Below are positions 13,866 to 53,641 of a DNA stretch of 64,000 nt, one piece after another. A program made the position numbers and the translations under genes. The DNA lies in contig CAVYVE010000003.1 of the NCBI GenBank assembly GCA_963771925.1, positions 30,053 to 94,052 of the forward strand. The letters are read 5' to 3'. The notes beneath the pieces are model-generated. The model searched no databases. It saw nothing but the letters and a program-made list of their open reading frames with translations, and was not told where the DNA came from. How positions within the stretch are numbered: the stretch's first letter is position 1; every line of letters starts with the position of its first letter. The stretch comes from an uncultured Phycisphaerales bacterium. Its GTDB lineage: Bacteria; Planctomycetota; Phycisphaerae; Tepidisphaerales; Tepidisphaeraceae.

Positions 13866-13885
13866 TTCGTTTTCAGGCTCCGTTT

Positions 13886-16344: not shown

Positions 16345-16374
16345 TGGACATTTCTTACGAGATTTCACCGCCTG

Positions 16375-33244: not shown

Positions 33245-33425
33245 CCGCTGGGCCTCTCTGCCGCAAAACGTTTAATATTTTACGCAAAATAACCTTGGAA
33301 GCGGCCTGATGCAAATTAAAATTACAACGGCCTTGGGGCGGCGGAGCGACATGTCGGGCACGGCGATCCTTTAGAAAGATCGCGGCCTCGCTTTAGCGCC
33401 TCTCTGACAAAAGGACATCTATCTC

Positions 33426-34938: not shown

Positions 34939-35664
34939 ATGCGAGTTCGATTTCTAGCTTGTAGCACGTTCTTCACCGCGGCCGCAGCGGCGCTGCTTGG
35001 CGTGACGGCGCATTCGCAGGCGGCCCTGGTCACCGTCAGTGCGGCGACGATGACCGACGCATACATGTCGTGGACCCCTTTGCCCGGAAATACCGTCGGA
35101 GGCGCTTCCGCCAGCGGTTGGAGCGTTGGCGCTCTTGACGCCAGCTTTAACGGCGCAGGCGACACCGTGACCGTGAGCCCCAACACGAATATCGCAGACA
35201 GCGTCCCCACCAGTACTTACTGGTTTATCGGCGGCGATGTTAACGATCCGGGTCAACTCATGGACGCCAGCTTGTACTGCGAGGTTGACAGCATCACGGA
35301 TCTGAACTGGACGTTCAACTACAACGTGCTTTCAAACACGTTTCAGTTTCCGCCGATGACGTCTTCCGTTGCGTTCATCAAGGCGTTCGCGCCAGGTTAC
35401 AGCTATATCGGCGAGGTCACGGCGCCGCTGACCGTGGGCATGGGCAGTCTGGCGCTGAATCCGTCGGTGGCGGGTTTCGGTGGTCTTGCTGCCGGCGACA
35501 TCATTCAGTACGGTTTTGAAACCGTGGGCCCGGATCTAACCGACAGCGCCGCCGCGGCGGCAGGCGATGCGGTGATCACCGCAGTTGCGGTTCCCGAGCC
35601 AACCACCGTCGCGCTGGCTGCGGGCGCGTTGGTGCTGCTGGCTCGCCGTCGTCGCTACGCTTGA
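34939..35664 (+). CDS. PEP-CTERM sorting-domain protein
   Basis: ATG 34939 follows GGAGGAAAG. The product has a signal peptide and the C-terminal anchor VPEPTTVALAAGALVLLARRRRYA. Confidence 0.8.
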   Translation: MRVRFLACSTFFTAAAAALLGVTAHSQAALVTVSAATMTDAYMSWTPLPGNTVGGASASGWSVGALDASFNGAGDTVTVSPNTNIADSVPTSTYWFIGGDVNDPGQLMDASLYCEVDSITDLNWTFNYNVLSNTFQFPPMTSSVAFIKAFAPGYSYIGEVTAPLTVGMGSLALNPSVAGFGGLAAGDIIQYGFETVGPDLTDSAAAAAGDAVITAVAVPEPTTVALAAGALVLLARRRRYA

Positions 35665-35899
35665 TTGATCGCCAGCTCGCGGCGTTCAGGCAACCAGCCT
35701 TCGCGGCGTCCCGAGCTTCCGATGGCGCAAAGGCTGGTCTCTATTCCGAGGCCAGTATGGACCGCCGACGCCGGGCTTGAATAGACGACCCTCCGCATGA
35801 TTGGGAAACTCCGGTCCAGTTTGAGTCGTATGGCTCAAACTGGACCGATGCGTTTGTTGCAACGATACGATCTACCGAAAACATATTGAGGTGCCTTTC

Positions 35900-37730
35900 A
35901 TGGCCACATTTCAGCGTGCTGCGATTCTGACGGCAGTCTTTTTTTTTGCTGGAATTGCGCCTTGCATCTCGGCGTCTGCCGACGCGACTGGCCCGGTGAG
36001 GGTGGAACTGCGTAAGACCGAAACCGGCTGGACGCTGATTCGACACGGCCAGCCTTATTTCATTCAAGGCGCCGGTGGCGACGCCTCCCGAAAAATGCTC
36101 AAGAGCTGCGGCGGCAATTCCTTCCGCACCTGGGGGGCCGATGACATCGGCGATCAACTCGACCAAGCTCACCGCCTCGGCCTGACCGTCACCGTCGGTA
36201 TCTGGCTGGAGCATTCGGGCGGCCCGAATCATTTCGATTACCACAATCCGCGGCAGGTCGCCGAACAGCTCGAAAAGGTGCGGCAGGCCGTTTTGAGGTA
36301 CAAGGATTATCCCGCGGTTCTTGTATGGGGCATCGGCAATGAAATGGAGGGATACAAGGACGGAGGCGATCCGGCAGTTTGGAAGGCCGTCGAGCGAGCC
36401 GCGGCTTTGGTGCACAAGCTCGACCCCAATCACCCGACGATGACGGCGATCGCTGAGATCGGCGGCAAACGCGTTGCGTCCATCGACGAATATTGCCCGG
36501 ACATCGACATCGTCGGCATCAATACTTACGCGGGCGGCCCATCGGTGGCGCAGCGGTATCGCCAGCTCGGCGGATTTAAGCCGTTTATCTTGACCGAGTT
36601 TGGTCCTGGCGGCACCTGGGAAGTCGGCAGCAATGCCTGGGGAGCCCCGATCGAACTCACCAGCACCGCCAAGGCCCTGGAGTATCGGCAAACGTATCTT
36701 CGCTCGATTCTCCCCGAACGGGGAAAACTGTGTCTCGGATCGTACGCGTTTTTGTGGGGAAACAAGCAGGAAGCCACCGCGACATGGTTCGGAATGTTCC
36801 TCCCGGATGGGACACGATTGGCGGCAGTTGACATGATGGCGCAACTCTGGACAGGCCGGCCGCCGGCGCATCCTTGTCCGACCGTTGATCCCATAACGCT
36901 GGATCGCGCCGATGTCGAAGGCGGCGCGACCATTCACGCCACGCTGGACGCCAGCGACGCCGATGATTATCCCCTGACGGCCAAATGGGTGCTGACGGTC
37001 GATCCCGCGGTGTATCAAACCGCCGGCGCATCAGGATGAGGCGCGTGTGATTCCCGGTGCGATCGAATCCGGCGACATTCACGGCGCGGTAATTCACATG
37101 CCCGATCGGACCGGGCCGTATTGGCTTTATGCCTACGTCCATGATGGTCACGGCGGCGGCGCCACGGCGGTGGCATCGCTACATGTCCATCCCACGGCGC
37201 CCGCCCCTTCTCAATCCGGCGCTGCCCGCGCGCGGCTTCCGCTGGTCTTGTACGGCGATGGAGCGGAGAATCCTCCTCCCTTTGCCTGGTCGGGTTGGAT
37301 GGGCGATTTGAAAGCTCTCGCGGTAGACGACAAGTGCTCGACCAATCCGCATTCCGGTACGACGTGCATGAAGTGCCAGTTCAAAGCCGCCAGCGGCTTC
37401 GGTGGAATCGCCTGGCAGAGCCCGGCGAACAATTGGGGCGATCAGCCGGGACTCGATCTGCGCGGCGCACGCAAACTTACCTTCTGGGCGCGCGGGGAAA
37501 ACGGCGGCGAGGTCGTCAGCTTCAAGCTCGGAATCCTCGGCCCCGATGCAAAATTCCCCGATTCCGATCACTCCGAATTGCCCGATGTGACCCTCAGCAC
37601 CGATTGGAAACAATACAGCATAGACCTGAGCGGCAAAGATCTGAGCCGAATCGCCACGGGCTTCGTCTGGGTGGTCTCGGCCTCGGGAAAACCGGTCACC
37701 TTTTATCTGGATGATGTACAATACCAATGA
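35900..37730 (+). CDS. secreted clan GH-A (GH2/GH5-like TIM barrel) glycoside hydrolase with a C-terminal carbohydrate-binding-like domain, one frameshift near 37025
   Basis: The product has a signal peptide, then YFIQGAGG, YPAVLVWGIGNEMEG (acid/base-type NE), LDPNHP, IDIVGINTY, FILTEFGPGG (nucleophile-type E) and ATATWFG. The 37047-37730 frame continues the protein (beta-rich, DDVQYQ end). Confidence 0.65.
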
Positions 37731-37985
37731 AGGATTCGCCCGTTGAGCCTTGCGGCTTTTCGCTTCTTTGCCGGGCGATTCGTTCATTCGATTTAATCCG
37801 GTCCGAGTAAAACCGCGATGCCCGTGAAATTTGGCGTCAATCGCCGGTTATCCAGGCTCTGCCGCGAAACATTAAACTATTTACGCGATATAAGATGGTT
37901 GGAGTGCCCACCAGTGTTACACTTGCTCCGATAGCGCGGATTGGATAAGAAGCATCGTTTCATCCCTTCTCGGAGGCGCGGAGTC

Positions 37986-39830
37986 ATGAGGAACCATCGA
38001 AACAGTCGAGGATCAGCGGCCCTGGCGGCGTGCACGGCGGGAATCTTTTCGGCGGCGATCGCATCGTACGCCTGTGCGCAGACCAATCTTGTGATCGACT
38101 ACAATTTCGCCGCCGGCGTTGATGGATCTCCCGACGCCTCCACCGGCGACGTGCCCATGACCAACTCCCTCAACCCCGACGCTGGGCCGTGGATGGGCTG
38201 GAACAACTGGGTATATCCATACGCAGGATATTATTGCAGCACAGTCGATACCGGTCTCCCCTCGACATCCAGCGGCAATGGTGGAAGTGACCAGTACGGC
38301 AAGACCTTTGGCGGCAACAATGGCAACCCTGGGACCAGCAACGGCGGCATCTACCAGTACGTCGGCGCCACCGCGGGCGATACCTACACCGCCTCCGGGT
38401 TTTTTGACAACTCGGCCATAGCTAACGACGGCGAGGACGAACTGAACAGTGGCCAAACCGACTCCGTTGAAATGCTTTTCTATTCGGGAGCCGACGGCAC
38501 AGGGACCACCTTGGCCACCAACGTCTCCGCCAGGGAATGTTAACCAGAACTCGCCGACAGATATCTGGACGCAGGAAAGCGTCACCGGAGTCGCCCCCAT
38601 TGGAACAGAATCGGTCGAGTGGTTGGCGTTTTTCTACAATCCGAACTCCGCAGGCGGCGCCTCTATGTTGACGATGCCAGCCTCGTCCAGGTCAACTTGA
38701 CACCAACTTGGACCGGCGGCGGCGCGGACGATAACTGGACGACTCCCGGAAACTGGGGCGGAACCGCGCCGGTTGCCACCAATGCTTTGGTCTTCGACGG
38801 TAACACTCAAACCACCAACAACAATAACTTCGCCGCCAATACCGCGTTCGACGGAATTACCTTCAATCCCACGGCCGGCGCGTTTGTGCTGGGTGGAAAT
38901 TCGATCGCCCTTGCCGGAGACATCGTCAACAATAGTTCGAGCGCGCAGACCGTCAATCTCGCCCTGGCGCTGCCAGCAAAACACAAACGTCAACGCGGCC
39001 GCGGGCAACATCACCATCGGCGGCGCGATCAGCGGGGGATTCTCGCTGACCGCGAACGGCGCCCATGTCGTTACGCTGACCGGGTCCAATTCCTATTCCG
39101 GCGGAACCAACGTCAGCGCCGGCACGCTCGTCATCGGCGCGGCCGGGCGCTTCCGGCCAACAGCGCGGTCTCCATCACCGGCGGCACCTTGAAACTGGCC
39201 CTCAACACCGGCGGCGAAACGCTGTCGTCGTTGTCCATCTCCTCCGGCAGTGCCTTGGATATCGGCAATAACCATATTATCATCAGCGATCCAGGCGGCA
39301 GCATTGACGCCGCGATCCGCGGCTATCTGGCCGACGGTTACAACGGCGGAGCATGGAACGGCACCAGCGGCGGCGGCATCGTCACCTCCGCCCCGACCTC
39401 GATCGGCGCCGGCACATATAGCATTGGTTATGCGGACGGCGCCAATGGTGTCGTCGCCGGCCTGTCTTCCGGCGAACTCGAAGTCGCATACACCCTGGCC
39501 GGCGATGCAAATCTTGACGGCAAGGTTGACAGTGCCGACTTTGGCATTCTGGCCGACAACTACGGCGCTTCGGGCGCGGTTTGGGATGAGGGCGATTTCA
39601 ATTACGACGGCAAGGTAGACAGCGCGGACTTCGGAATCCTGGCGGTCAACTACGGCCAATCGGCCGGCAGCAACGCCGACGTGGTGACGGCGGCCGACTG
39701 GTCGGCCTTGGACGCCTTCGAGTCGGCCAACGACATAACGCTGTCCGCGGTTCCGGAGCCGGCCTCCGCGGGGTTGCTCGTATTGGCCTGTTTGGGATCG
39801 CTTGCTCGACGGCGAAAGCGGGCGGTATAA
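37986..39830 (+). pseudogene. PEP-CTERM protein with an N-terminal lectin/CBM-like region, autotransporter-associated beta-strand repeats and a dockerin-like module, 4 frame changes
   Basis: The product has a signal peptide (AALAACTAGIFSAAIASYACAQ), WTGGGADDNWTTPGNWGG, the LTGSNSYSGGTNVSAGTLVIG repeat type, GDANLDGKVDSADFGILADNYG twice, and the anchor VPEPASAGLLVLACLGSLARRRKRAV. The reading path alternates between two frames near 38530, 38660, 38965 and 39140. Confidence 0.75.
39488..39655 (+). repeat. dockerin-like double EF-hand module (copy A)
   Basis: It encodes YTLAGDANLDGKVDSADFGILADNYGASGAVWDEGDFNYDGKVDSADFGILAVNYG. It is about 90 percent identical at nucleotide level to 42076-42243, based on 16 mismatches in about 156 nt aligned by hand. 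Confidence 0.75.
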
Positions 39831-39839
39831 TCCGATTGG

Positions 39840-42540
39840 ATGAGAAGGGCGCGGAGTTTTTGTGTTGTTAGATATTTGTGCTGCGAGCCTTCACGCGTGA
39901 GTGCGGCCATTCCATTCCGGCGCATCTCCGGCGCTCGGCGACGTCCGCGCCGATCGGTTTCCCGTGACGCACAGTCCATCTCTCGCGCCTGCTGTACCCT
40001 TGAATCTTTGGAGGGCCGCGTCCTTTTGTCATCCGCACCGGCCGCGCCGGCGGGCGTCTTGGCGACGAATGGAACGACGCCGACAGATATCCAAGTTAGC
40101 TGGAACACCACGGCGGAGGCAACGTCGTATCAGGTATGGCGAAGCACCACGGACACCACATCTTCCGCGACCGATATCGCTCCCAACGTCACCGGCACGT
40201 CCTTTGACGACACCTCGGTCACCGTCGGCACAACTTATTTTTATTGGGTGGTGGCGTCCAACACGTCGGGGAACAGTTCCTACAGTGCGATCGCCAGCGC
40301 TACCGGCGGGACTTTGGTGTGGGACGACACGTTCGGCGCCACTGGAATCAGTTCCGCATGGGGCCCTGACAACCCGACCGATCCAAACAACCAGAACGTC
40401 ATCTACACCAACACGTCGGCCGCGAATTCCACCGCCGACAATCCAACGACCCTGCAAGTTGTCAGTGATTCCCAGGCCACCGACGGGCAAGCTCTGGCGA
40501 TGTCGCTGACGCCTTCACCCACGAACAATGGGGAATACGATTCCGCGGAAATCTGCACGGAAGTCGATCCATCCGGCATCGCCAACAATATGGAATACGG
40601 CGAGATCCAGGCCCGCATCAAAATACCCGGCGGAAACAACAGCGGGGCGATCTGGCCCGCGTTTTGGCTGCTCGGCGATGACATCAGCACGGTCGGCTGG
40701 CCCAAAAGCGGTGAGATCAACGTCATGGAAAATGACGGCGCCAACCCGAGCACCATTGATTCGACCATTCACGGGCCGATGGCCGACGGCCAGGATTACA
40801 ACTACGGATCGGGCGTGGGGGCTTCCTACACGTTGTCCGGAGGCCAGGACTTTTATTCCGGCTATCATATTTTTTCCGTGAATTGGGGACCGAATTCCAT
40901 CACATTCTCGGTTGACGGCCAGGCTTTCGAGACGCTGACCCCCGCAAGCATTCCCTCGGGAAGCAGTTGGGTATTTAACGGCAAGCCCTTTTTCATTATC
41001 CTGGACGTCTGCGAAGGCGGCGACTTCGCCCCCGGCACTATCACCAGCACGCAGACGATGGATGTGGATTATGTGGCGCGCCTACAGCCTGCCGCCGCCG
41101 ACGGGCCTCGTGGCCGCGATTGCGACCAACAGCAGTCCCGCCAATGTCAGTTGGAGCGCGGTCGACGGGGCCACGTCGTATGAAGTTTGGCGAAACACCA
41201 CCTCGAGCGTTTTGTCGGCCAAGGAACTTGCCGGCGACGTGACGAGCACGTCGTACTCCGATTCTTCGGCGGCTTCCGGAACCAATTACTATTACTGGAT
41301 CGTTTCAGCCAATGCCGCGCAAACGAGCGGTTATAGCGCGTCGGAGGTCACGAGGCTCACGCCCTCCGTAACCATCTCCTCTGCACCGGCAAATATCACA
41401 TACGACGGGACCAGCGACGTAACCAGTTGGGCATCGACCGGCGTAACCGGCGTGACTGGCTCGCCCGCCCCAACCGGATCGGCCAGCCTGGTCTATTACA
41501 ACGGCACGACCGACACCGGGACGCCGCTGAGTTCTCCGCCGATCGGCCTCGGCACTTACACCGTCGTGGGGACTTATGCGGGGGACGGCAATTATGTTCC
41601 GGCCCAGAGTTCGCCGGTAACGTTCACCATCAATAATCCAACCGGGCTTTCGACCGGTAACGGCGCCCAATATACGATCACCTGGAACGGGGAAACGCCG
41701 ACGTTGGATGTCTCCGCGGGCATCGTGACACTCAGCGCCGATCTTTCCGTCACGTTTCCCAATTACAATCTCACGGTCGAAAGCGGCGCGAGCGTTTTGC
41801 TGGATGCCGGCCAGCATATCGCGCAGCTCGAGGTGATCGGCAACGGGACTCTCAACGTCGACTCGTATTGGGTGATCGTCAACTACGGAGCAGGCCCCGA
41901 TCCGTTTTCGACCATCGAATCGTATCTGGCGAGCGGCCACAACGGGGGATCATGGACTGGTCCCGGAATCGTCAGCACCGCCGCGGCCACGAGCTACGGC
42001 CATTATGGCGTCGGGGTTGCCGACGGCGCTGATGGCGTCGTCTCGGGCCTCGCCTCCGGCCAGATCGAAGTCCTCTATACGCTCTACGGCGATGCGAATC
42101 TCGACGGCAAGGTCGACAGCGCCGACTTCGGCATTCTGGCCGACAACTACGGCGCTTCCGGCGCCGTTTGGGATCAGGGCGACTTCAATTACGACGGCAA
42201 GGTCGATAGCGCCGACTTCGGATTGCTGGCCCTCAACTACGGCAACAGCGGCAACTCCAATTTGCCCAGTATGCAGTTGTCGACCGTAACGTTGACGCCA
42301 ACAACAACCACCGGGACGGTGGTATCCACAATATCGTCCACGCAATCGATCACACCGGCGGCGTCCACTACCACGCCCCAGACCGTTGCCAACGCCACTC
42401 CAATCGCCGCGAAGCGTCCTCCGTCAAAATTCTCAGCCGCGACAAGTTCTTTCGCTGTTGCGACAATACCCCTTTCTAACGGCATCGCAAAGAGTCCCCA
42501 GCGACATAATACGGACGCCGAATTCCTTTCCAACCAGTAA
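39840..42540 (+). CDS. GH16-family beta-glucanase (laminarinase-like) with Fn3-like modules, a dockerin-like module and a Thr/Ser-rich tail, one frameshift near 41075
   Basis: The GH16 catalytic strand is WPKSGEINVMEN (ExDxxE type), with WPAFWLLG and VDYVRAY-type ends. Two modules of the type SWxxxxxATSYxVWR follow. Fragments 39840-41183 and 41062-42540 join at MDVDYV/RAYSLPPP. Confidence 0.75.
42076..42243 (+). repeat. dockerin-like double EF-hand module (copy B)
   Basis: It encodes YTLYGDANLDGKVDSADFGILADNYGASGAVWDQGDFNYDGKVDSADFGLLALNYG. See copy A. Confidence 0.75.
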
Positions 42541-43589: not shown

Positions 43590-44834
43590 TCACACCGCCA
43601 TCGCGGGTTGTGGCGGAAGGTCGAACGGCCGGGACGCCGCAGCTTGAACTGGGGCCGGTTTCGCGGCCGACTTCGGACCGCGGATTTTCAGGCGCTTGGC
43701 CAACCGCATGCAGGGGGCTTCGACCGTCTTGTGCAACACGTCCGCGGCGATGATGCTGCAAGCGATGGCCGAGATGTAGGCGAACAGGGCCAGAAGCGGC
43801 GACTTGTCGCCGTAGGTCAGGAAAATGTCGATCACGGCGACGCCGACAGCCACGTGTATGAGATAGAGGCTGTAAGAGATTTTGCCCAGGTACTGGATCC
43901 ATCCCCAGGAAAGCCAGACGGCCATCTGGCCCAGACGGGCGCAGAGATAGATCAGCAAAATGGTCCCGACGGCGGCGAAGACTCGGTAATCGAGTCGCCA
44001 AAGCTGGCCCGCAAGCGTGGCGCCGATCAATACCCAAAACCAGCGCTCGCGGATTTTTCCGGAAAAGGTCCAGGCGAAGACGGCGCCCATGGCGAACATG
44101 AACCACATGCCGCTGAAATTCATCTTGTCTTCGCCGTAGCGGTAGAAAATCGAATAGATGGTAATCGCCGCGAATACCGTGGCCAGAGTCCAATTCCCCG
44201 CTCGTTGTCCGAAGCGCTCCCGAATCCTTTGGGCGATCATCAACGTGATGATGATGGTGAGATAAAACCGCACTTCAAGGCAAAGGGTCCAGGCGACGCC
44301 CACCACCAGGAGCTTGTTCATCACGTCCGGCACGTAGAACATGTTCCCGAGAATCGTGCCGGCGCCCCAGTAGTGGAGGATCGTCGATGTGTATTTGTGC
44401 CACAGAACGCAGCGGTATCCAATCGTAAGGAAAATGACGGCCCAGTAGGGAGGATCGAGGCGGATGGAGCGGCGAATCATGAAATTCGCGGCGAATTTCG
44501 GGGTGCAGACGTCGTTTCGCAGGGTGTAGGCGATGACGAATCCGCTGAGCACGAAGAAAATCTCCACGCCGACGTAGCCTTGCAGCAAGACCCAGTCCAC
44601 CGCGGCCGGCGTGTATGGGGCAAGCAGATAGTGGAGCTTGGAAACGATCGGCGTATAGAAGTGAAAGAGCATGACGAGCAGCGCGGCGACGCCGCGAAGG
44701 CCGTCGATGAAAAGCAGGCGCGCGGCCGGCGAGCTCTGCGGCGCCGCGCCGGCGGGTTCCTGACGGGAAGCAGAACTCTTCGGTGCGCTTTGCAAGGCGA
44801 TGGTCATGATGATCTCCCTCACCAACGGCCACAT
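43590..44834 (-). CDS. acyltransferase family 3 membrane protein (polysaccharide O-acyltransferase candidate)
   Basis: Intact 414-aa ORF. FIDGLRGVAALLVMLFHF is followed by about 10 helices, which is typical of acyltransferase_3/OafA-type enzymes. The start could also be the second Met (44807). Confidence 0.75.
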   Translation of the reverse strand: MWPLVREIIMTIALQSAPKSSASRQEPAGAAPQSSPAARLLFIDGLRGVAALLVMLFHFYTPIVSKLHYLLAPYTPAAVDWVLLQGYVGVEIFFVLSGFVIAYTLRNDVCTPKFAANFMIRRSIRLDPPYWAVIFLTIGYRCVLWHKYTSTILHYWGAGTILGNMFYVPDVMNKLLVVGVAWTLCLEVRFYLTIIITLMIAQRIRERFGQRAGNWTLATVFAAITIYSIFYRYGEDKMNFSGMWFMFAMGAVFAWTFSGKIRERWFWVLIGATLAGQLWRLDYRVFAAVGTILLIYLCARLGQMAVWLSWGWIQYLGKISYSLYLIHVAVGVAVIDIFLTYGDKSPLLALFAYISAIACSIIAADVLHKTVEAPCMRLAKRLKIRGPKSAAKPAPVQAAASRPFDLPPQPAMAV

Positions 44835-44850
44835 CGGCCGTCATGGGTCC

Positions 44851-46508
44851 TCAAAATCGATAAGAGAGCGCGGCTCGTAATCCGGTTCCGGAATAATTGG
44901 TGAACGATCCGGGAACGTAGTAGTACAGATACTCAACGGAGGCTTCCAAATGGTCGGCGACGTGCATCGCCGGGCCGATGGCCACGGTGGTGCCGAATTG
45001 CGATGCGTCGGGAACAAATGGCAACTCGACCCGGACGTGCACGGAGAGCCATTTGAAAATATGCGGCTCGATCTCCACGACCGGCCCAAACGTCTGATAC
45101 CAGTGCGGAGAGTTGTAAGCCGAAACGGAGATTTGATAGTCAATGACTTCGTATTCCACGCCTAATCGAAGCTGGGCCGGAGCCCACAGGAGATAGGTCG
45201 GCTCGGCATGGATGAAGTTGCGCCCATTTCCATCGGAATAGAAAGCATGGCTGGCGGAAATCCTGGCGCTGAGATTGTCGGTGAGTTGGCAGCCGGCGCC
45301 CAAACCGATGACATCTTGCGTGACCCCTTCCGCGACCGTGGCGATGCTGTCATCGACAGGATCGTTGAAGTGATAAAAGCCGTAAAGCCACGCCGACTGT
45401 GACGGTACCCAGGTCGATCCCAGGCTAAAGCCGGCCTTGTCAAAGGAATTGACCTGGAAGCCCGAAGCGCCGCCTTGCAGGGAGAGGGTGCTGTCAACGT
45501 GATCTTCGACGCCCAAGCCCTCTTCGTATCGAGTTACGTTGCCGAAATCCGTGTCATGGTTGTTGAACCAGCCGGTGTTGAACGTGCCGTCGACATGCAC
45601 GTGATCCGAAACGGCCGCCGAAAGGGTGTTGAACAATCCGGACTGATAGAAATTGTCGGTTCCCTGAAAGTAGAAGTATTTGGAGGAGAGCTGCGCGGCC
45701 CGGCTTTGCTGGATTTCGTTGAGGCCGGATTTGGCGCTGTAATAGCTGGGATCGACAAGCATGGCCTGGGTGTATTCGGCCTGGGCCTTGGTTAGATTCC
45801 AATTGGCGCGATTGATGTCTCCCAGCAAAGCCAGGGCGGCAGCGGATTTGGGATCTCTTGCCAGAACGCTTTGGGCAATCCTCCTGGCTTCGTCGGTTCG
45901 GCCACGCGATTTGAGGAACTGCGCGTAGTCAAGATTGATCCACTGGTCCGTCGGGGCGAGGTCCAGTGCGTCGAGATAGGCGCGTTCCGCTTCTTTGTAT
46001 CGACCGGCCTTTTCCAGCGCCTGCGCCAGTTGACCCGGCTCCACGGATCCGAGGGATTGCGCTGCGCCATTTCGCGCAGCACCTGGATTTGCCGACTGGT
46101 GCGGCCGGTAAGCCCTGCGGCCTTGGCGAGCATTTCGCCCCAGCCCGGCACTTCGGGCGCGGCGCGGTACACGGCCTCAAGGTGCGGATAGGCCAGTGCG
46201 GGCTCGTTCAATGGTGCGAGGTACAGGTATCCCAGCGAGCGTTGCAATGACATATCTTCGGGATGTTCTTCAGAGCAGACCTCCAGCGCGGCCGCGGCGG
46301 CGGCGCAGTCGGCCTCGGACTTGGTTTGATAAGCCTTGGCTTCGAGCCGCCTGGCGTGTTGGAGTTGCGCGGCATACTGGCGGGCGGTGAGTTTGCCCGA
46401 AAAGTTGAGAGACTGCGCCACCGCGGCGTGAGCCGATAAAAAAATGATCGTCGCCAGGATCACCCCGACCCCGGCGCGTTGCAGGTGGATGGGAACTTTC
46501 GCATTCAT
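44851..46508 (-). CDS. TPR-repeat plus C-terminal beta-barrel outer-membrane exporter (PgaA/BcsC-like architecture), one frameshift near 46040
   Basis: ATG 46508 overlaps the synthase stop (ATGA). The product has a signal peptide (GVILATIIFLSAHAAVAQ) and TPR-like helices (AYLDALDLAPTDQWINLDYAQFLKSRGRTDEARRIAQSVL). The C-terminal roughly 270 aa have alternating beta-strand character and end with ...GLRAALSYRF. Confidence 0.65.
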
Positions 46509-49500
46509 GGATTGCCTTGGCCCTGCCTCCATGGAATATGGGTATGGGAATTCCCGATCCGGACGGGAATGTTGGCTTCATCCATACCGCTGGGAGTAAT
46601 CACTTCGAGCTGAATACGATAGTCACCAGGCTGACCGGGCAAATCGATCATGGCATCCGCTCCGCCACGGAGGGGAACAATGTGCCCCACATCCGCGGCA
46701 AAACCGGGACCGGACACGGTCCAGTGATACTGAGGCTGCTCACCGTTGTACGATTTCACGTCCGTTCGAACGAGGAACGGTTCATGCGGCCACTGCGGAT
46801 CGGTGGGGTATTCGACGTTGACGATTCTCGGACCCCCGTAGGGGTAGGTGCCGTTCAGTTTCGGGTCGGGATTCCACCACGCATATTTGAGAGCAAAATA
46901 AGCTGGCTTAAGCCGGCCATCCAAATCAGCGATTCCGAACCAAGTTGCCGTGCCTTCGTAGCGGTCTCGCCAGCAATAGGCGATGCCGCCGACGTTCCAA
47001 CCGGCATTGGGCTGGATATATTCGCGCCAGCGATGGGAGTAAAGCCAAGCCTTGTAAATTGCGGTATCTTCGACCAATCCGCCGCCGGCGTCGTATTCGT
47101 TGTATTTGTTTTCCCAGTAGCCATTGGGTCCGAATTCGCTGACCAGATAAGGCCGGGTGGGATCGATGCGGGCCGCGATCTCCTTGAGGTGGGAAATGTC
47201 CGGTTCGTAATAACTATTGACGGCGATGACATCCACCGCCGGCGCGCCCTTGGCAAAATCCGAAATGGCTCCGGCAATTTGCGTCGATTCATTGGCGCAG
47301 AAAACGGGATGATTGGGGTCGAGTTCTTTGATCCGCTGCGCCATTCGCTGCACGAACAGCACATAGGAGTGGCGAACCTCGGTTAGATAGGGTTGGCCGT
47401 ATTCGTGTTTCAGCAATCCCCACACCTCGTTGCCGAGGCACCAGCCGAGCAAGCCGGGATGATCGCGATACTCCAGCACGGTCTCCTCGATTTGCCGTTC
47501 GTAGGCCGCTTCCTTTTCCGTATCGGTCAGGTAATCGACATCCTGAACGAACCAGAAACCATACAGGACCTTAAGCCCGTTATCGGAGGCGGCATTGAAA
47601 ATGTTGCGGTCGGACCATGTCTCGCCGTAGCGGCGAATCGTGTTGCCGCCCATGGCGCGGATGGCTCGAAAGTCCTCGCTTAACTCACGGTGGCTGAGGG
47701 GCACGTCGGCATCGCGCCAGTCGTGGCCCGGGTTATAGGCAATGCCTTTGATGTAGTAAGGGGCCCCGTCGATCATCAGCGAAAAATGCCCCGGCGAGCC
47801 GCGCACGCACGGCGACGGCGAGCGAACCGGTTGCAGATCGCCCCAGAGCGTCTGATCGGCTGAGAGGCGCTCGAGCGCCGCCGTCACTGAAGGGCGCCAA
47901 TTTGAGTCCCTCGCCCATCGACGACAAAGCCAGGGAATCGTCGGTCCAGCCTGAGTTGCCGGCTTGACCGGGATCGAGCAATGCGCCGGGGATCTCTCGC
48001 GCTCGTGACTGCTGTCGCGAAACACGACCGCCTTGATCTCGGGATAAAACCGTGAGATTCTCGACATGGCATCTTGCATCCATCCGGCGCGATCGGCGTC
48101 GGCCTTGGGGGCATCCAGATCCATAATCATGACGGGCAAATGCCAGGCCTTTGCTCTCGAGCGAAACGGCTCATAAATATCGCCGAATGAGCTGGCGCCG
48201 GCGTCGGCGCCATTCGCGCCGGACACGGCAATCCAATCGACGTAGCCTTCTCCGGCTTCGCCGGGGAAATAGAAATCCATGCTTTGAGCGCTGGCGGGGT
48301 TCCAGACCCAACCGGCATTGGTGGCGCCTTCAGAGTCGAACGTGGTAAGGATCCGTCGCCAAGCCGCTATGAAATCGGCCGGCCTGTTGCCACCCGACAC
48401 CGACCAGGGCATTTGCGGGTTGTCCGGCTGCGGCGCAAAACAGATCAGCACCGGCTCGCCAAAGGCGCGAACGTCGTCCGCGAAGCGGCGGATGTAATCG
48501 TCAAATCGTCCGGCGGCGATGGATTTGAGAATCGCCCGATCGCCCGGCCGAACCGTCGCCGCGTCAGGGCCGTGACTTGACGGAAGCCAGTTGATCATCG
48601 GGATCGCGCCGCCGCGCCGGATTTCCTTCAGCATCGTGATCGGGAAGTCCGCGTCGGCGTTTGCGGTCCACCACTGATTCAGGGCGACGATGCGGAAATT
48701 AAAATCGAGTCCCTTCTGGAGGGACGCGAGCCTCGATGACCTTCGGGTGCTTTGAGTGTCGCCCAGATCGATCCCGGTGTAGAAACCGCCGACGTTGACA
48801 TTTTTGTTCAACTCGAATGGAACTTCAATCGTTTGGGCTTGGGGCCGCACCATGGCGATCACGTAGCCGGCGCAGATCGTCAGCGCGATGGCGGCGGGAA
48901 TCACGCGGCCCTCGCGGATCTGGCCCAGAACGACATCGTATAAGCGGCCCAGCACGCGAATCACCGGCCTCACGAACACGTCGCGAACCTTGCGCATCAT
49001 CGAAAGACGCCGGCGAAGGGCGCACAGCGTGCTTTGCTGCGCGATAATCGAAACGTAGATCAAAGCAATGGCGTTGGCTGAACCCAAGGCGCCCATAAAC
49101 AGCGCGGCGGGCGAGGAATCCCTGTAAACGCCGATGACGACGGCGACCGTTAGAATTCCACCGGCGATGAAATTCGGCATGGCGACGTCACCGGCGTCGC
49201 TGGGCTTGTCTTCCTTCGGAGTTGGGATGTAGGGCACTTTGATGCGGAATACGGCGCAGAGAACTCCAACCAAGTAGACCCACCAGGTGGCCGTCGCCAG
49301 AACGCCGCCGGCCAGATGAATCCCGCGTTCGCGCGGCTCCAGGAGCCATCGCTGGACCCGAAGGCGCACCAGCATTCCGAGAATCAACATCGGAGCCACG
49401 GCGGCGAGAATCTGCGGCAGCGTGGCCCGCCAGGCGATCAGCCCATAAGAAAGGCACAGCACCGGGACCACCATTTCCAGCAGGCCGACCAAGCCTCGCA

Positions 49501-50605
49501 GGAAAAATATGGGACAGAGCAGGAAATGGATTTTCTGGCGGAGATTGAATCCCTTGAACAGGCTGGGATATTCCTGGAACAGAAGATCGAATACGCCGCA
49601 ACTCCACTTCAGTTGCTGTTTGTAAAACGCGCCGAGGGTTGAGGGCACGAGTCCGCGCGTGAGGATTTCCGGCACGTAAACCGAACGCCATCCCTTGGAG
49701 AAAAGGCGCATGGCGGTGTGCATGTCCTCGGCAAGCCCGGGCGCGTGCCCGCTGATCGTGTCCAGGGCGACGCGTCTGAATACGCAGTTGGCCCCGATCG
49801 CCTGCACGGTCCCGTGGCCGTGCATTCCCATCATGAACGGTCCGTAGAAGTGATACGACTGCTCGGCCGCGCCGCGCGCCACGAACGAATCGCCGGCGTT
49901 GCGATAGGCCTGCACCGACTGAACGAATCCCACGGCCGGATCTTCGAAGTATCCCAGTGTGCGGTGGAGCAGATACGGCGCCGGCTCGTGATCGGGATCG
50001 AGCACGACCGCGATCTGGCCCGTACACTGCGCCAGGGCGTTGTTGATGTTTCCGGCCTTGGCATTTTTCTTTTCCTCTCGGGTGACATGGATGACGCCCA
50101 GCTCGTCGCAAATCTTCTTCAGCCGGGGATCGTTTCCCTCATCGCAGAGATAATTCTTGTGGGGATATCGAACCGCGGTCATCGCCTTGAGGGTGCGGGC
50201 GATCATTCCGATCGGTTCGCCCGGGCACGCGGTGGTGAGCATATCGACGGCCCATCTTCGCCGCGGCCGCAGGACCGGCGGAGCCGAGATCGCCCAATAG
50301 TTGTACCATTCAAACAGCGACGCAAACGCCCGCAAAGCCATCGCGCCGGTCAGCATCAAATAAACCGCTGGATCGCCCACGCGATCCGGATTCATCAGCC
50401 ACGCCAGCAGCCCGATGACCGAGACCGCCGCCACCAGGATCAGCAATCGCAGCTTGAGAAGTTGCCCGCGCGAGGGCGGAGTCACGCGAACCGGCTGGGC
50501 CGGCCACCGCATCGGCGACCAGCCTTCCATCGCGCGATTGGTCTCGTTCAGATCGCTTTTGACCGTCGCGGCGGACCTCGAAGGATATTGGACGTCGGTA
50601 GACAT
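46505..50605 (-). CDS. multidomain polysaccharide synthase: processive GT2, multi-TM region, GH26-like domain, clan GH-A TIM-barrel domain and an Ig-like tail
   Basis: Intact 1366-aa ORF. GT2 motifs in order: CDEGND, VLDPDH, LAEDMH, QQLKW. There are about 8 hydrophobic helices. Next come QWWTANADADFPITMLKEIRRGGAIPMINWLP and DDYIRRFADDVRAFGEPVLICF, then YYIKGIAYNPG, LLGWCLGNEVWG, LDPNHP, VDVIAVNSY, YLVSEFGPNG and GTATWFG. Confidence 0.8.
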   Translation of the reverse strand: MSTDVQYPSRSAATVKSDLNETNRAMEGWSPMRWPAQPVRVTPPSRGQLLKLRLLILVAAVSVIGLLAWLMNPDRVGDPAVYLMLTGAMALRAFASLFEWYNYWAISAPPVLRPRRRWAVDMLTTACPGEPIGMIARTLKAMTAVRYPHKNYLCDEGNDPRLKKICDELGVIHVTREEKKNAKAGNINNALAQCTGQIAVVLDPDHEPAPYLLHRTLGYFEDPAVGFVQSVQAYRNAGDSFVARGAAEQSYHFYGPFMMGMHGHGTVQAIGANCVFRRVALDTISGHAPGLAEDMHTAMRLFSKGWRSVYVPEILTRGLVPSTLGAFYKQQLKWSCGVFDLLFQEYPSLFKGFNLRQKIHFLLCPIFFLRGLVGLLEMVVPVLCLSYGLIAWRATLPQILAAVAPMLILGMLVRLRVQRWLLEPRERGIHLAGGVLATATWWVYLVGVLCAVFRIKVPYIPTPKEDKPSDAGDVAMPNFIAGGILTVAVVIGVYRDSSPAALFMGALGSANAIALIYVSIIAQQSTLCALRRRLSMMRKVRDVFVRPVIRVLGRLYDVVLGQIREGRVIPAAIALTICAGYVIAMVRPQAQTIEVPFELNKNVNVGGFYTGIDLGDTQSTRRSSRLASLQKGLDFNFRIVALNQWWTANADADFPITMLKEIRRGGAIPMINWLPSSHGPDAATVRPGDRAILKSIAAGRFDDYIRRFADDVRAFGEPVLICFAPQPDNPQMPWSVSGGNRPADFIAAWRRILTTFDSEGATNAGWVWNPASAQSMDFYFPGEAGEGYVDWIAVSGANGADAGASSFGDIYEPFRSRAKAWHLPVMIMDLDAPKADADRAGWMQDAMSRISRFYPEIKAVVFRDSSHERERSPAHCSIPVKPATQAGPTIPWLCRRWARDSNWRPSVTAALERLSADQTLWGDLQPVRSPSPCVRGSPGHFSLMIDGAPYYIKGIAYNPGHDWRDADVPLSHRELSEDFRAIRAMGGNTIRRYGETWSDRNIFNAASDNGLKVLYGFWFVQDVDYLTDTEKEAAYERQIEETVLEYRDHPGLLGWCLGNEVWGLLKHEYGQPYLTEVRHSYVLFVQRMAQRIKELDPNHPVFCANESTQIAGAISDFAKGAPAVDVIAVNSYYEPDISHLKEIAARIDPTRPYLVSEFGPNGYWENKYNEYDAGGGLVEDTAIYKAWLYSHRWREYIQPNAGWNVGGIAYCWRDRYEGTATWFGIADLDGRLKPAYFALKYAWWNPDPKLNGTYPYGGPRIVNVEYPTDPQWPHEPFLVRTDVKSYNGEQPQYHWTVSGPGFAADVGHIVPLRGGADAMIDLPGQPGDYRIQLEVITPSGMDEANIPVRIGNSHTHIPWRQGQGNP

Positions 50606-51014
50606 ATATCGTTACGAACAAATAGCGGCCACCACTGCAAAAGCCGCCGCAATAAATCGCTCGCCCCGATTCCACCTGGGAACACCCCGGACTGGCTGAG
50701 ATGGACTTTACCACGCTCCCTGGACGCGGCGCTAAATACGGCCGAGACGGCGGCACAGATGGCCGATAGTACTGAGAACTTGCGTCAAGTTTTTAGATGG
50801 TGGCGATTGTGAGATCGCCACATGCACCCATCGAATATGGAACAGCTTTAACGTTCTTTTGCGCCGATGCGCGCGTCGTCCTACAGATATGGACCCTACC
50901 TATGCGACCAATCCATAGTCGTGAATATCCGCGTACGGCTCCTCGACGCGGTTTCGCTGCGAAGCGCGAGGCGCCTGCACCACGAAATTTGCCCGGCGTT
51001 CATCGTTCGGCAGA

Positions 51015-52396
51015 TCATTTACCACGGCGGCCTTCAACTTCGCTCCGTGACGTTCTGAGAAAAATCGCGGCCTCAACGGCTTTCTCCATGTTGGTCCGTT
51101 TGGCGCTCAGCACGAGAATCGTCGCGTTGGAGCGAGCGGCCAGCGCAACCGTATCTGGATTCTCCAGAACCGGCCCGGCGTCAAACAGAACGTAGCGATA
51201 CGCGGAACGCAATTGGTGGATCACGTCGGTCACCGCGCGTCCCTGCAGCCTGGCGGCCGCGGACGACGACGGTTTCCCGCACGGAAGCAAGAAAAGATTT
51301 GGCACATGAGTCGAGCAGACGAATTCTGCCGCGGCGGTCGGATTGTCCAGCGCTTCACAGAAACCCAAAAGCGATTCGGGCTGAGTCAGCAACTTGTGCT
51401 GGATTGGACAGCGCATGTCCGCATCCACCAGAAGCACGCACTCCCCCGTCAGAGCCAGAGTCGCGGCGAGATTCAGCACAACCGTCGAACGACCTTCACC
51501 CCGCGAGGGAGAAGTGATCAACACCGATCCGCGTTGCTGGCTGACTTCGCCTCCCAACAGATTCATCAGCAACGCCCGGCATGAGATGGCCACTTCCGAT
51601 GTAGGATCAATATGGGCCGCGAGGCTTTGAGCCGCCGGAGACGCCCGTCGCGAAAGCGACGGCAAATACCCGGCGGTCTGCAAACCGGTCATCCTAAGTA
51701 TCTGCGACGGCGATGCGACGCGACGGTCCAGAGTTGCCCGTATTAGCACGATGGCAATCCCCAGAACCAATCCGAATGCCGCCGCCAGCGCCATCAGCAA
51801 TTCCGGCGAGGCGCCGATTGGCCCAACATCGGGGTTTGCCGGTATGGCCCGATAGATCGCATTCTGATCCAGACCGGAAAGCCCTTGGCCTCGATTCATC
51901 TTGAGACGTTCCTGTGACAACAGGGCTTCAATGACGCCATCGACCACACGGCTGGCCTCATGCGGGTATTTGGAGATCAATACAATTTCCAGTTTTCCCG
52001 CGGACGCATGCACGGTCGCGTGCAATTTGCTGCGCAAGGCCGCAATCGATTCGTGTTCGGAGCCGAAGACCGAAAGCTCAGATGCGTCGATGTATTCAAC
52101 TGCATTTGACAGGATTTCGTCAGAGTAGGCCGCATCCGCCAGATTGGTCAGCCCGTCGACCGACATCGAACCTACAAGAATGTCAGCATGGCTAAGCGCT
52201 CGCGGGGCGGATTCTTGAATAAAACCTCGCACGGCGTAGGTGCGCCCACGGACAGCAAATAGACCATCATTGCCAGCGCTGTGGCAAGCGTCGTCAACGC
52301 CAAAACAAACCGTCCGTCCATGATGCGACGGGCAATGCCTGTAAAGCGATTACCGGAAACAACACCGGTTTCCCTACTATTTTCCACCGCGTGCAT
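51015..52396 (-). CDS. polysaccharide co-polymerase (Wzz/GumC-like) fused to a BY-kinase-like P-loop domain with a degenerate Walker A, one frameshift near 52230
   Basis: An N-terminal TM helix (FVLALTTLATALAMMVYLL) lies in fragment 52172-52462, and a second TM is LLMALAAAFGLVLGIAIVLI. The P-loop reads LITSPSRGEGRST (Arg where the GK[ST] Lys is expected, codon CGT checked in the DNA). Walker A' is VLLVDADMRCP and Walker B is YVLFDAGPV. There is no C-terminal Tyr cluster. Confidence 0.7.
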
Positions 52397-52462
52397 AAGA
52401 TGTAACACTCGAGATGAGCGAATTCCCTTGAGGAAAGTATATAACTCGAAAAAGCATAACAC

Positions 52463-52500
52463 GCAATTGCTTCTTTGTTAAGATAAGCGCAATAATTGCG
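52463..52500. promoter_or_regulatory. two related palindromes in an AT-rich intergenic region upstream of the co-polymerase gene
   Basis: GCAATTGC lies at 52463-52470 and CGCAATAATTGCG at 52488-52500. The surrounding 52397-52663 is visibly AT-rich in an otherwise GC-rich window. Confidence 0.3.
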
Positions 52501-52663
52501 ATTAGGTGTGAATATAGGAGACCTTTTGCGGTTATATTGATTAAACCGGAAAGAACGAAGAAATCGACTGTGATGGCTTACTGAAATGATTGGAGCATTG
52601 CCGTTTTCGGCGTCCGATCATTGTCGGTTATGAAATGCCGCTGCCGCAGCCGGGCGAAAGCGC

Positions 52664-53641
52664 TCAGCCTTCTATCAGAGTTAATGCCCCAGGCGAGAAT
52701 ATGTTGGAGATGAACTCGATATCGAGATACTCCGACCCCGAGCCGCCGACGACGGCGTAACCGGACTTGGGTTTCAAAAACTGGTTGTCTTCGACGGTGA
52801 GGTCGCTGATCGTTGGGCCGTTGGACCAGTAAAGGAATCCCTCTTTATCACCCGTTGAAGTGTTATCCATGAAGGTATTGCCCGAATTCGCCGCCCCCCC
52901 GGCATAGGTAAACGCCGCGTATCCATACCCGGCGTTGTTCGCCGATTGGCAGTCGATCACCATGGAGTTCGTCACGCCGCCGTCCAGATCGAATCCGCCC
53001 CCGTCGTTGTCCCGGGTCTTGTTATTGTGGCTATAGCAATTGCTGATGGTGACATCATTGCTGTCATACGCCCAGATGCCGTCCGGCCCGTCGGCCGCAT
53101 TGTTATTGCCGCCGTTGCCGTAAGCCTGGCAGTCTTGCACCGTCGCCCCGTTCAATCCGGCCAGCATTATCCCGCTGCCCGAAGGCGAATTGCTCCCCGC
53201 GATCCCCAAGTTGTTGTACGCCGTGCTGTTCAGCAGCGAAAATCCCGTGATCGACTCCGTGGCCCCATACGTCGATATCCCGGCAATGCCATTATTGAAC
53301 GCGGTAACGTCCGACAGGCTGATGTTGGCATACGTCCCGTCCCCGGCGGTGCCGATCACGACGCCGTAGCCCGAAGCGAATCCCGACACGGTCACATCGC
53401 TCAGCGTCAAGCCGCTGACGCCCGGCTCATCGGATTCGAAGGAAATTCCATTGCCGCTCTTTCCAATCACCTGCACGTTGCTGATCGACACTGAACTAAC
53501 GTCATACCCCGTCAATCCCCCAACCTTATGGCCGTTGCCATGGAGGGTTTCTCCAGATTGCAGCGTCAAGACTTTGGTTGTGTCCACGGTAAGAGTGACG
53601 ACGGAAAATAGCGTCCGCGATTCCAGGGCTTCGATAAACAT
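52664..53641 (-). CDS. right-handed parallel beta-helix repeat protein (polysaccharide lyase/hydrolase-like fold)
   Basis: Intact 325-aa ORF with repeated motifs of the type I.N..V.G..GNGI / V.DC.A.GNGG / ISNCYSHNN. The N-terminus starts directly with MFIEALESRTLFS, and an in-frame TAA lies 17 codons upstream. Confidence 0.7.
   Translation of the reverse strand: MFIEALESRTLFSVVTLTVDTTKVLTLQSGETLHGNGHKVGGLTGYDVSSVSISNVQVIGKSGNGISFESDEPGVSGLTLSDVTVSGFASGYGVVIGTAGDGTYANISLSDVTAFNNGIAGISTYGATESITGFSLLNSTAYNNLGIAGSNSPSGSGIMLAGLNGATVQDCQAYGNGGNNNAADGPDGIWAYDSNDVTISNCYSHNNKTRDNDGGGFDLDGGVTNSMVIDCQSANNAGYGYAAFTYAGGAANSGNTFMDNTSTGDKEGFLYWSNGPTISDLTVEDNQFLKPKSGYAVVGGSGSEYLDIEFISNIFSPGALTLIEG

Follow-up and report, generated by a model that had tools for sequence, protein, structure and literature searches.

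The stretch analyzed here, referred to as the window, is a 64,000-nucleotide (nt) segment of contig CAVYVE010000003.1 from an uncultured Phycisphaerales bacterium, and coordinates below are window positions unless they are given for a relative (L004, L006, L010 or L011). It contains a putative exopolysaccharide (EPS) locus of five genes that occupies about 10 kb of the minus strand (43590-53641). In order of transcription these genes code for a beta-helix protein, a Wzc-like protein with the fold of a polysaccharide co-polymerase (PCP) and bacterial tyrosine kinase (BY-kinase), a family 2 glycosyltransferase (GT2) synthase, an exporter with TPR and beta-barrel domains, and an AT3 acyltransferase. 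This gene content and minus-strand order had been proposed in an earlier note made from the sequence alone, and both are borne out by the list of open reading frames (ORFs) and by family scans. The locus borders claimed in that note are also right because the flanking genes are a convergent DeoC-type aldolase gene on one side and a divergent TerC gene on the other, both on the plus strand.

The synthase gene (46505-50605, minus strand) codes for a protein of 1366 amino acids (aa) with matches to GT2 and to glycoside hydrolase (GH) TIM barrels, as had been claimed. Specifically, its module order is two transmembrane (TM) helices, a cytoplasmic GT2 domain, a TM bundle, a GH26-like module, an Ig-like domain, a GH158-like module and a beta-sandwich. 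The proposed GT2-GH fusion thus stands, with the correction that its GH part consists of two modules and not one. The GT2 catalytic domain (49340-50266, minus strand; residues 114-422) is BcsA-like, as seen in matches to PDB entries 4hg6 and 5ej1 (E 1e-40) and to TIGR03030 CelA (E 1e-46). Its best matches are UDP-forming cellulose synthases, and the PgaC model scores only E 4e-11 on the synthase. The GT2 motifs D155, D203-P-D205-H, E293-D294 and Q330-Q-x-K-W334 (K for R in QQxKW) are invariant across 114 full-length synthase homologues.

The two hydrolase modules differ in their catalytic residues. The GH26-like module (48008-48523, minus strand; residues 695-866) matches 2bvd (E 7e-14) and is closest to the C. 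thermocellum lichenase Lic26A, with alignment placing Q726 at the acid/base position and D829 at the nucleophile position. Both catalytic Glu residues are therefore lost from this module, while in the wider family they are kept in 59/114 and 76/114 members. The GH158-like module (46556-47665, minus strand; residues 981-1350) matches 9oro (E 3e-26, aligned over 9oro residues 57-423) and BuGH158 (6pal, E 2e-18). Here both catalytic Glu residues are intact (E1060 in LGNEVW and E1157 in VSEFGP) and are kept in 112/114 and 113/114 family members. Both sequences align with the corresponding motifs of the PDB matches, so that by homology and catalytic residues this module is of the GH158 type, and activity is predicted. 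Note that GH158 enzymes are endo-beta-1,3-glucanases that act on curdlan and laminarin (PMC6442616, PMC7553746). A JGI label of 'GH17 exo-beta-1,3-glucanase' carried by one homologue was considered and rejected, as comparison with PDB chains gives GH158 and GH26-like modules instead.

A hydropathy scan of the synthase gives seven or eight hydrophobic segments, and a loop with 11 Lys/Arg residues precedes the last TM helix. Because of this loop, the positive-inside rule would place the C-terminal 780 residues, which include the GH modules, in the periplasm. More than 1,400 synthase homologues of 1,250-1,390 aa (best identity 64%) are present in Planctomycetota, Verrucomicrobiota and Bacteroidota, and neither a GT2-GH158 fusion nor this synthase family is described in searchable papers. 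This is a large family without a characterized member, and it may make an undescribed beta-glucan that is both built and remodeled by a single polypeptide.

The exporter gene (44851-46508, minus strand; ~552 aa) is read as two overlapping ORFs, 45792-46532 and 44851-46044. The ATGA overlap claimed for its start is exact, with the synthase TGA at 46507-46505 and the exporter ATG at 46508-46506. Since its start codon overlaps the synthase stop codon, the exporter is predicted to be translationally coupled to the synthase. The protein begins with a Sec signal peptide (46416-46508, MNAKVPIHLQRAGVGVILATIIFLSAHAAVA followed by QS), continues with TPRs (~45694-46390) and ends with a barrel (44854-45693) that has the C-terminus ...SYRF. 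Its assignment as a TPR plus beta-barrel exporter is upheld by matches to TPR Pfams, to OMP_b-brl and to the PgaA TIGRfam.

The exporter fold was tested on a monomeric AlphaFold model of the closest intact orthologue, P0184 (73% identical; pLDDT 82), in which 13 helices (about 6 TPRs) and 16 strands are present in addition to a disordered N-terminus. A Foldseek search of the PDB with this model returned BcsC (9b8a, 9b8h, 6tzk), PelB-PelC (9h80_M, TMt 0.69) and PgaA (4y25, TMt 0.77), with generic porins ranking below these. These best matches show that the protein is not an unrelated outer-membrane protein, a possibility that the earlier note had allowed for. As judged from the model, the exporter is a compact member of the synthase-type BcsC/PgaA/PelB exporter class.

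The last gene of the locus (43590-44834, minus strand) lies downstream of the exporter stop as stated previously, with the spacing counted as 16 nt. It codes for an AT3 membrane acyltransferase of 414 aa (PF01757, E 3e-21; score 76 bits, cut-off 31; aligned to positions 2-325 of the 326-position profile). The protein has at least six strongly hydrophobic segments by hydropathy scan and no SGNH domain, and by family it likely has a role in O-acylation of the polymer. An AT3 gene directly follows the exporter gene in the window, L002, L006 and L007. An AT3 gene is also found after the synthase in the Bacteroidota relative L011, so the pairing of AT3 and synthase recurs across phyla.

At the other end of the locus, the beta-helix ORF was found where the earlier note had put it (52664-53641, minus strand). 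It codes for a right-handed beta-helix protein of 325 aa (PF13229, E 5e-15) that is a candidate secreted glycan-processing enzyme. Orthologues with 68-73% identity adjoin the locus in L002, L006/L008, L007 and L012, with side and strand varying. Neither this protein nor the acyltransferase has a match in PDB sequence searches. The N-terminal motif of the beta-helix protein, MFIEALESRTLFS (53626, minus strand), has a counterpart in a GH16 protein encoded elsewhere in the window (TLESLEGRVLLS, 40008, plus strand), the two having LExRxL[LF]S in common. In the beta-helix protein this sequence occupies residues 5-13 and is not preceded by a classical signal peptide, and we take it to be a planctomycete-type N-terminal motif.

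The Wzc-like gene required the most revision. The earlier note had placed it at 51015-52396; its identity as a co-polymerase-like protein with a kinase-like domain holds, but its end does not, as the true gene spans 50900-52396 (minus strand; ~497 aa) in three frames. The ORFs as called consist of a central one (51015-52232) and an N-terminal piece in a second frame. Comparison with orthologues shows that the segment with the first TM helix (TM1) runs from the ATG at 52396, that the body extends from ~52250 to ~51047, and that the tail is in a third frame, where the conserved C-terminal ...AVVNDLPNDERRANFVVQAPRASQRNRVEEPYADIHDYGLVA stops at 50902-50900. The tail ends in ...PYADIHDYGLVA, and ...EEPYADIHDYGLVA contains two conserved spaced tyrosines but no Tyr cluster, unlike the canonical match P0128 which carries a SYYYYYYY tail. 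Both tyrosines are within the last 12 residues and follow a pattern, [PT]Y..[IV]HDYG, that is conserved in the subfamily. From the hydropathy scan and alignment, the architecture is TM1, a ~140-aa periplasmic domain, a second TM helix (TM2) and a cytoplasmic P-loop domain. The long periplasmic helical hairpin of Wzc/Wzz is absent, as seen by a gap of ~260 alignment columns.

Profile searches match the Wzc-like protein to PF13614 and to TIGR03018 and TIGR01007 (E about 1e-26), the latter two below their cut-offs (92 versus 108 for TIGR01007). These BY-kinase models far outscore the BcsQ models (PF06564, 25.8 bits against a cut-off of 21.3; TIGR03371, 28 versus 158). An identity as BcsQ was rejected by these scores, by the membrane-anchored topology and by the absence of BcsQ among the top 50 fold matches, and the likeness to BcsQ would be one of functional analogy only. 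The fold was tested on a monomeric predicted model of the orthologue P0123 (pLDDT 75). Foldseek matches to the PDB at ranks 1-28 are all full-length E. coli Wzc (TM-score about 0.65), and these are followed by CapAB, the Wzc kinase domain, BceF and Etk. We therefore regard the assignment to the Wzc fold as sound.

The short Wzc-like subfamily is, by database counts, rare. When 1.84 billion cluster representatives were searched exhaustively with an HMM, only about 8 clusters (50% identity) matched the full profile, beyond which scores drop to ~200 bits and the proteins are mostly of 600-800 aa that match in the TM2-plus-kinase part only. Members were found only in two GTDB species representatives and one further metagenome contig, in all cases beside the synthase. 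As a separate observation, an Arg in place of the Walker A Lys (GEGRST or GDGRTT) is present in some distantly related BY-kinase-like proteins, few in number and 560-700 aa long (P0135, P0139 and P0143). Such Lys-to-Arg proteins may form a wider, unstudied class.

The Wzc-like protein could be a working BY-kinase that phosphorylates its own tail tyrosines or the synthase, and that controls chain length or output as does Wzc, which would mean that a true PCP-2a phospho-cycle is attached to a synthase. Fold and overall architecture are indeed those of Wzc, nearly all members retain the Walker A' aspartates (VLLVDAD), the Walker B Asp is conserved within YVLFDAGP, and the two tail tyrosines are conserved as described above. 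However, the Walker A motif is GEGRST in 7/7 aligned subfamily members, with Arg replacing the catalytic Lys, and one further relative has GDGRST. In PDB entries, Wzc K540M serves as the non-phosphorylated form (PMC12004946). In addition, the Arg that follows Walker A' is variable (R, Q or H), the Tyr-rich cluster is missing, and no low-molecular-weight protein tyrosine phosphatase or other phosphatase gene is present beside the loci in the gene lists of L001, L002, L005 and L006. A working kinase is in our view unlikely. We favor a Wzc-like protein that acts without phosphorylation because every member has the Walker A Arg and because a Tyr cluster, a phosphatase and a coiled coil are all lacking.

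To place these genes in context we compared seven loci, namely the window, L001, L002, L005, L006/L008, L007 and L012, in which the locus proteins of the relatives are 34% to 74% identical to those of the window. The PCP-like gene, synthase and exporter occur in this order and on one strand in the window, L001, L002, L005, L006/L008 and L007, while L012, a 3.4-kb contig, has the beta-helix gene, the PCP-like gene and the start of the synthase. Co-conservation in relatives had been set beforehand as a test of the locus, and the kinase-like, synthase and TPR/barrel genes are indeed adjacent and co-oriented across loci. This shared arrangement of orthologues is far beyond chance. Outside of the block the genes differ in every genome and include RND pumps, a PMT_2 family gene, glycogen phosphorylase and transposases. 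It follows that the PCP-like gene does not mark the border of another, neighboring cluster, which the earlier note had named as a way in which its proposal could fail.

A related alternative is that the PCP-like and beta-helix genes form a separate unit for some other pathway, such as a distant Wzx/Wzy cluster, leaving an EPS operon of only synthase, exporter and acyltransferase. The spacers are in line with such a division, with 294 nt between the PCP-like stop and the synthase ATG (50606-50899, minus strand) and 267 AT-rich nt between the beta-helix and PCP-like genes (52397-52663, minus strand), where the GC fraction for 52-54 kb of the window is 0.546. Also in line with it are the shifts in position and strand of the beta-helix gene among relatives and the lack of a PCP-like neighbor at more distant synthase homologues. 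Against this division, the PCP-like gene lies directly upstream of the synthase and co-oriented with it in 7/7 contexts with everything beyond it differing, and members of its subfamily are found only beside the synthase. Furthermore, no partner for another pathway is nearby. As the earlier note had observed, Wzx, Wzy, outer-membrane polysaccharide export (OPX; Poly_export) and phosphoglycosyltransferase (PGT) families are absent from the window ORFs scanned, which were ~47 of the largest. These families are also absent from the precomputed Pfam lists of L001, L002, L005 and L006. We consider a separate unit quite unlikely relative to a single unit that includes the PCP-like gene.

The same spacers were searched for regulatory elements. 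The ~400-nt leader that had been proposed before the synthase is not supported, as the actual gap is the 294 nt given above and it is unconserved among relatives, with a mean column identity of 50% and a length that ranges from 19 to 365 nt. It has no Rfam match at E<=1, and a riboswitch or leader RNA at this site was rejected on the basis of this result together with the variable length and unalignable sequence in relatives. The 267-nt spacer has one sigma-70-like match (52481-52453), which is a consensus match only with fewer matches than in shuffled sequences, and the promoter and terminator scan found no promoter above shuffled expectation. Finally, Pfam and NCBIfam scans of the five proteins at E<=0.01 detected neither PilZ nor any other c-di-GMP-binding family. 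Control by c-di-GMP via PilZ was accordingly rejected, though the proteins may have a non-Pfam binding site.

Another possible product of the synthase is a periplasmic or cyclic beta-glucan made in the style of NdvB, where the fused GH would cleave and cyclize the chain, rather than a secreted matrix polymer. Fusion of a GT2 to a periplasmic retaining GH follows the logic of NdvB and 'Orphan' synthases (PMC10237404), and many homologues have no adjacent exporter gene. In the clade of the window, however, a BcsC/PgaA-class exporter is conserved and predicted to be translationally coupled to the synthase, and the domain order is N-terminal GT2 followed by GH26-like and GH158 modules, whereas NdvB has GH17 at its N-terminus. 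We judge an NdvB-style product to be about as improbable as the separate unit, and favor a polymer that is secreted.

Three frame breaks interrupt two of the five genes. The earlier note had counted one in the exporter and one in the co-polymerase; the former is located near 46031, while the latter gene has two, near 52250 and near 51047. The exporter break is one C missing from AAC(C)TGG, inside CCTGG which is a Dcm-type motif, and the co-polymerase break near 51047 is beside a T5 run. A public allele of the exporter, P0343, is an intact 552 aa protein that starts with MNAKV at the exporter ATG, is 98.75% identical over residues 1-160 and then matches the 397-aa downstream ORF. The exporter break is therefore probably an assembly error. 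The out-of-frame segments of the kinase gene still code for conserved protein sequence, and the breaks as a whole are most likely long-read assembly errors, which for the kinase gene we infer. The nearest relative, L006/L008, has its own kinase-gene breaks as well as a split synthase (L006 ~9990, ~11170 and 12555-12679), and frame breaks are dense both there and in the window. Both the window and L006 break the kinase gene twice, at positions that are near but not identical: one break separates TM1 from the periplasmic domain, and the other separates the kinase core from the tail. Programmed frameshifting was considered for this gene and rejected, given that these positions differ by ~10 nt or more, that both assemblies contain other breaks and that an intact exporter allele exists. 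Systematic basecalling error likely underlies the breaks, which leaves their coincidence within the kinase gene unexplained. The contigs of L006 and of another relative have long-read-style 'contig_N' names and come from uncultured Phycisphaerales metagenome-assembled genomes (MAGs).

That the locus is instead a decaying pseudogene cluster in the source genome, with all three breaks as real mutations, would fit breaks in 2/5 genes and the similar condition of L006, but it is the least probable alternative given the nearly identical intact exporter allele, the location of breaks inside CCTGG and beside a T5 run, the conserved coding of out-of-frame segments, the apparent overlap of several neighboring window ORFs in different frames as split genes would, and the long-read origin of the relatives. 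Elsewhere in the window, at 8000-18000 on the plus strand, GC skew is strongly positive (0.09-0.15) over ~10 kb that contains many overlapping medium-sized ORFs in different frames with fragmentary CofH/MqnC and ABC_tran matches. This region looks like plus-strand genes broken by indels.

Overall, we consider it probable that the locus is one conserved functional unit that makes and exports an EPS by a synthase-dependent route. The product is probably an O-acylated beta-glucan, as predicted from the protein families. A beta-glucan with beta-1,3 linkages is favored because the GT2 domain matches cellulose synthases, because the families of the fused GH modules act on beta-1,3 and mixed-linkage glucans, and because of genes near the loci of relatives, namely UDPGP (UDP-glucose pyrophosphorylase) beside L006 and phosphoglucomutase beside L004. 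In the mechanism that we propose, the GT2 domain would polymerize UDP-glucose into a beta-glucan, most likely with beta-1,3 linkages, that is threaded through the synthase's own TM channel. The periplasmic GH158-like module would then trim or transglycosylate the nascent chain, a role that parallels BcsZ, the C-terminal domain of PgaB and AlgL, as well as the GH17 domain in NdvB, and the catalytically dead GH26-like module would serve as a glucan-binding guide. The AT3 enzyme would O-acylate the polymer, the TPR/barrel protein would carry it across the outer membrane, and the beta-helix protein would be a secreted polymer-processing enzyme. The Wzc-like protein, most likely independent of phosphorylation, would form an oligomeric scaffold or a nucleotide-dependent switch on the synthase. 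As such it would be a membrane-anchored functional analogue of BcsQ/BcsB, PgaD or Alg44, in principle like EcpK and HfsB.

Several points weigh against this interpretation. The whole case is built from homology and synteny in uncultured MAGs, and the linkage type of the polymer is deduced from the GH modules. How many TM segments lie between the GT2 domain and the last helix is ambiguous, so the periplasmic placement of the GH modules comes from the positive-inside rule only. Co-transcription across the gap between the PCP-like gene and the synthase is putative given its length here and in relatives. The two conserved tail tyrosines could leave room for real phosphoregulation, and the Walker A Arg recurs in a few distant BY-kinase-like proteins of uncharacterized activity. 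Regulation also appears to differ from that of paradigm systems because no PilZ c-di-GMP receptor was detected. Finally, more distant synthase homologues are without the PCP-like gene and, often, without the TPR exporter. For example, L003 has the synthase with a 735-aa TPR protein and no PCP-like gene, and in L009 neither a PCP-like gene, an exporter nor another such partner gene is beside the synthase. In the Bacteroidota relatives (L011, 4089-7740 and 11971-17500; L004, 13877-16589) the synthase is near stand-alone GH26 and GH158-like genes. These neighborhoods also contain a gene for an AT3 enzyme or for a small outer-membrane barrel, another Cellulose_synt-type GT2 together with a DUF3131 protein, and phosphoglucomutase. 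Because distant homologues show these other contexts, the synthase is best viewed on gene content as an ancient core, the TPR exporter as a clade-level partner and the short PCP as a lineage-specific addition in Phycisphaerae.

A further context was seen in L010 (Chthoniobacteraceae; 1-2243 and 8001-12095), where a synthase homologue with 45% identity is ~6 kb from barrel, OPX and PCP genes. These genes are on the opposite strand and code for an outer-membrane barrel, a 239-aa Poly_export/SLBB protein (a short OPX) and a 696-aa PCP/BY-kinase. The arrangement may be coincidental, or it may be a further type of neighborhood that combines a synthase with PCP/OPX genes.

The window locus could represent a hybrid, fourth export arrangement in which a Wzc-fold ring that lacks the periplasmic spire and kinase chemistry has become the dedicated co-polymerase or gate of a processive BcsA-type synthase, which hands the chain to a BcsC-type porin. 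This proposal is more tentative than that of a single functional unit, and we regard it as a possibility somewhat short of an even chance. If true, it would provide the first case of a PCP that functions within a synthase-dependent pathway. In current reviews PCP/BY-kinase proteins are assigned to Wzx/Wzy and ABC pathways and TPR/barrel porins to synthase pathways, and according to a 2025 review synthase-dependent pathways have no PCP2-like system (PMC12220298). The view in the earlier note that a PCP/BY-kinase-type protein and a TPR/barrel exporter around one processive synthase is an unusual combination is supported, and the combination of a Wzc-like protein, BcsA-type synthase and TPR/barrel exporter is undescribed in searchable papers. 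Each part comes from a known family or fold class. The word 'unusual' is softened by the degenerate kinase module, which has lost the Walker A Lys and has no Tyr cluster, and by two precedents. First, the P-loop SIMIBI ATPases BcsQ/WssA are already known partners of cellulose synthases, with BcsQ having a Walker A without the canonical Lys, binding ATP and contacting BcsA (PMC8892547). Second, the opposite crossover, where PgaA-like barrels serve Wzx/Wzy systems, is published (PMC9603273, PMC9601211). Conserved pairing of a Wzc fold with a BcsA-type synthase and a BcsC-type porin blurs the line between pathways from the undocumented side, and suggests that the Wzc fold is reusable by a different polymerase, for which it would be a scaffold independent of phosphorylation. 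The reach of this finding is limited by how narrowly the PCP partner is distributed among taxa. In addition, new O-acylated beta-glucans may be made by members of the synthase family in soil Planctomycetota, Verrucomicrobiota and Bacteroidota, and given the compact size of the locus, five genes in ~10 kb, it could be reconstituted in a heterologous host.

Regarding the rest of the window, a probable secreted beta-glucan-degrading cluster adjoins the EPS locus (31824-42540), with its genes on the plus strand and its regulator on the minus strand. It comprises an AraC-type regulator (31824-32768, minus strand) and, on the plus strand, a prepilin-like N_methyl protein (33426-34238), a stand-alone GH158-like paralogue that is 30% identical to the synthase module (35891-37039), a GH16+fn3 protein (39840-41183) and two dockerin/Ig-like proteins (38619-39830 and 41062-42540). 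This cluster may degrade or recycle the polymer of the EPS locus, or may act on laminarin-type food. The only tRNA in the window is tRNA-Gln(CTG) (22063-22135, plus strand).

The closest known systems include those for secretion of bacterial cellulose, in particular the Wss operon for acetylated cellulose (WssA/BcsQ, WssB/BcsA, WssE/BcsC and WssF-I; PMC8892547, PMC10302187). Such systems and the window locus both have a BcsA-type GT2, an exporter made of TPRs and a 16-strand barrel, acylation genes downstream and an integral glycoside hydrolase, which in the cellulose system is BcsZ. In both, an accessory protein with the P-loop SIMIBI fold is encoded upstream, and E. coli BcsQ is also without the canonical Walker A Lys. 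Unlike that operon, the window locus has neither BcsB nor PilZ, its hydrolase is a synthase-fused GH158 whereas BcsZ is a GH8, its P-loop protein is a two-TM Wzc-fold protein whereas BcsQ is soluble, and its acyltransferase is AT3 rather than MBOAT/AlgI-type. Its exporter is also much more compact, with about 6 TPRs in ~552 aa compared to the 1157 positions of the BcsC family model NF008520. Other BcsA-like synthases, namely those of curdlan (CrdASC), mixed-linkage glucan (BgsBA) and cyanobacterial cellulose (HlyD-like/TolC), also function with an inner-membrane or periplasmic adaptor other than BcsB. Those adaptors are membrane-fusion-protein type or of unknown fold and not of the PCP/BY-kinase fold, and none of the three synthases is known to have fused GH modules.

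The NdvB and pseudomonad 'Orphan' cyclic beta-1,3-glucan synthases (PMC10237404) likewise unite in one polypeptide a cytoplasmic BcsA-like GT2, a TM channel and, in the periplasm, a retaining GH of clan A whose substrate is the nascent beta-glucan. Relative to NdvB, the window synthase has a reversed domain order, GH26-like and GH158-like modules in place of GH17 and ~500 additional aa, and it is encoded together with an outer-membrane exporter, an acyltransferase and a PCP-like protein. The PgaABCD system for poly-N-acetylglucosamine and the Pel system have in common with the window locus the exporter fold class and modification of the polymer in the periplasm before export. They differ in that the window synthase is of a different subfamily and that no deacetylase, PgaD or PelD-G equivalents are present.

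The Wzc-like protein has the general PCP-2a layout of Wzc, in which a periplasmic alpha/beta domain is flanked by two TM helices and the part that follows is a cytoplasmic domain of BY-kinase fold. Unlike Wzc, its periplasmic domain has only ~140 aa with no long helical hairpin, and it adjoins a processive synthase with no OPX, Wzx, Wzy or PGT partner. A lack of catalytic hallmarks is shared with EcpK and HfsB of the EpsV-EcpK and HfsA-HfsB pairs, BY pseudokinases that are proposed to be scaffolds for their PCP partners (PMC12004946). EcpK has lost all motifs, whereas the window protein has lost only the Walker A Lys. Finally, the Myxococcus Wzp barrels with class-3 OPX (PMC9603273, PMC9601211) are, like the window locus, a crossover of synthase-type and Wzx/Wzy-type export parts. 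In that case a PgaA-like barrel serves a Wzx/Wzy system together with a PCP and an OPX, whereas in the window, where there is no OPX, it is a PCP-like protein that accompanies a synthase.

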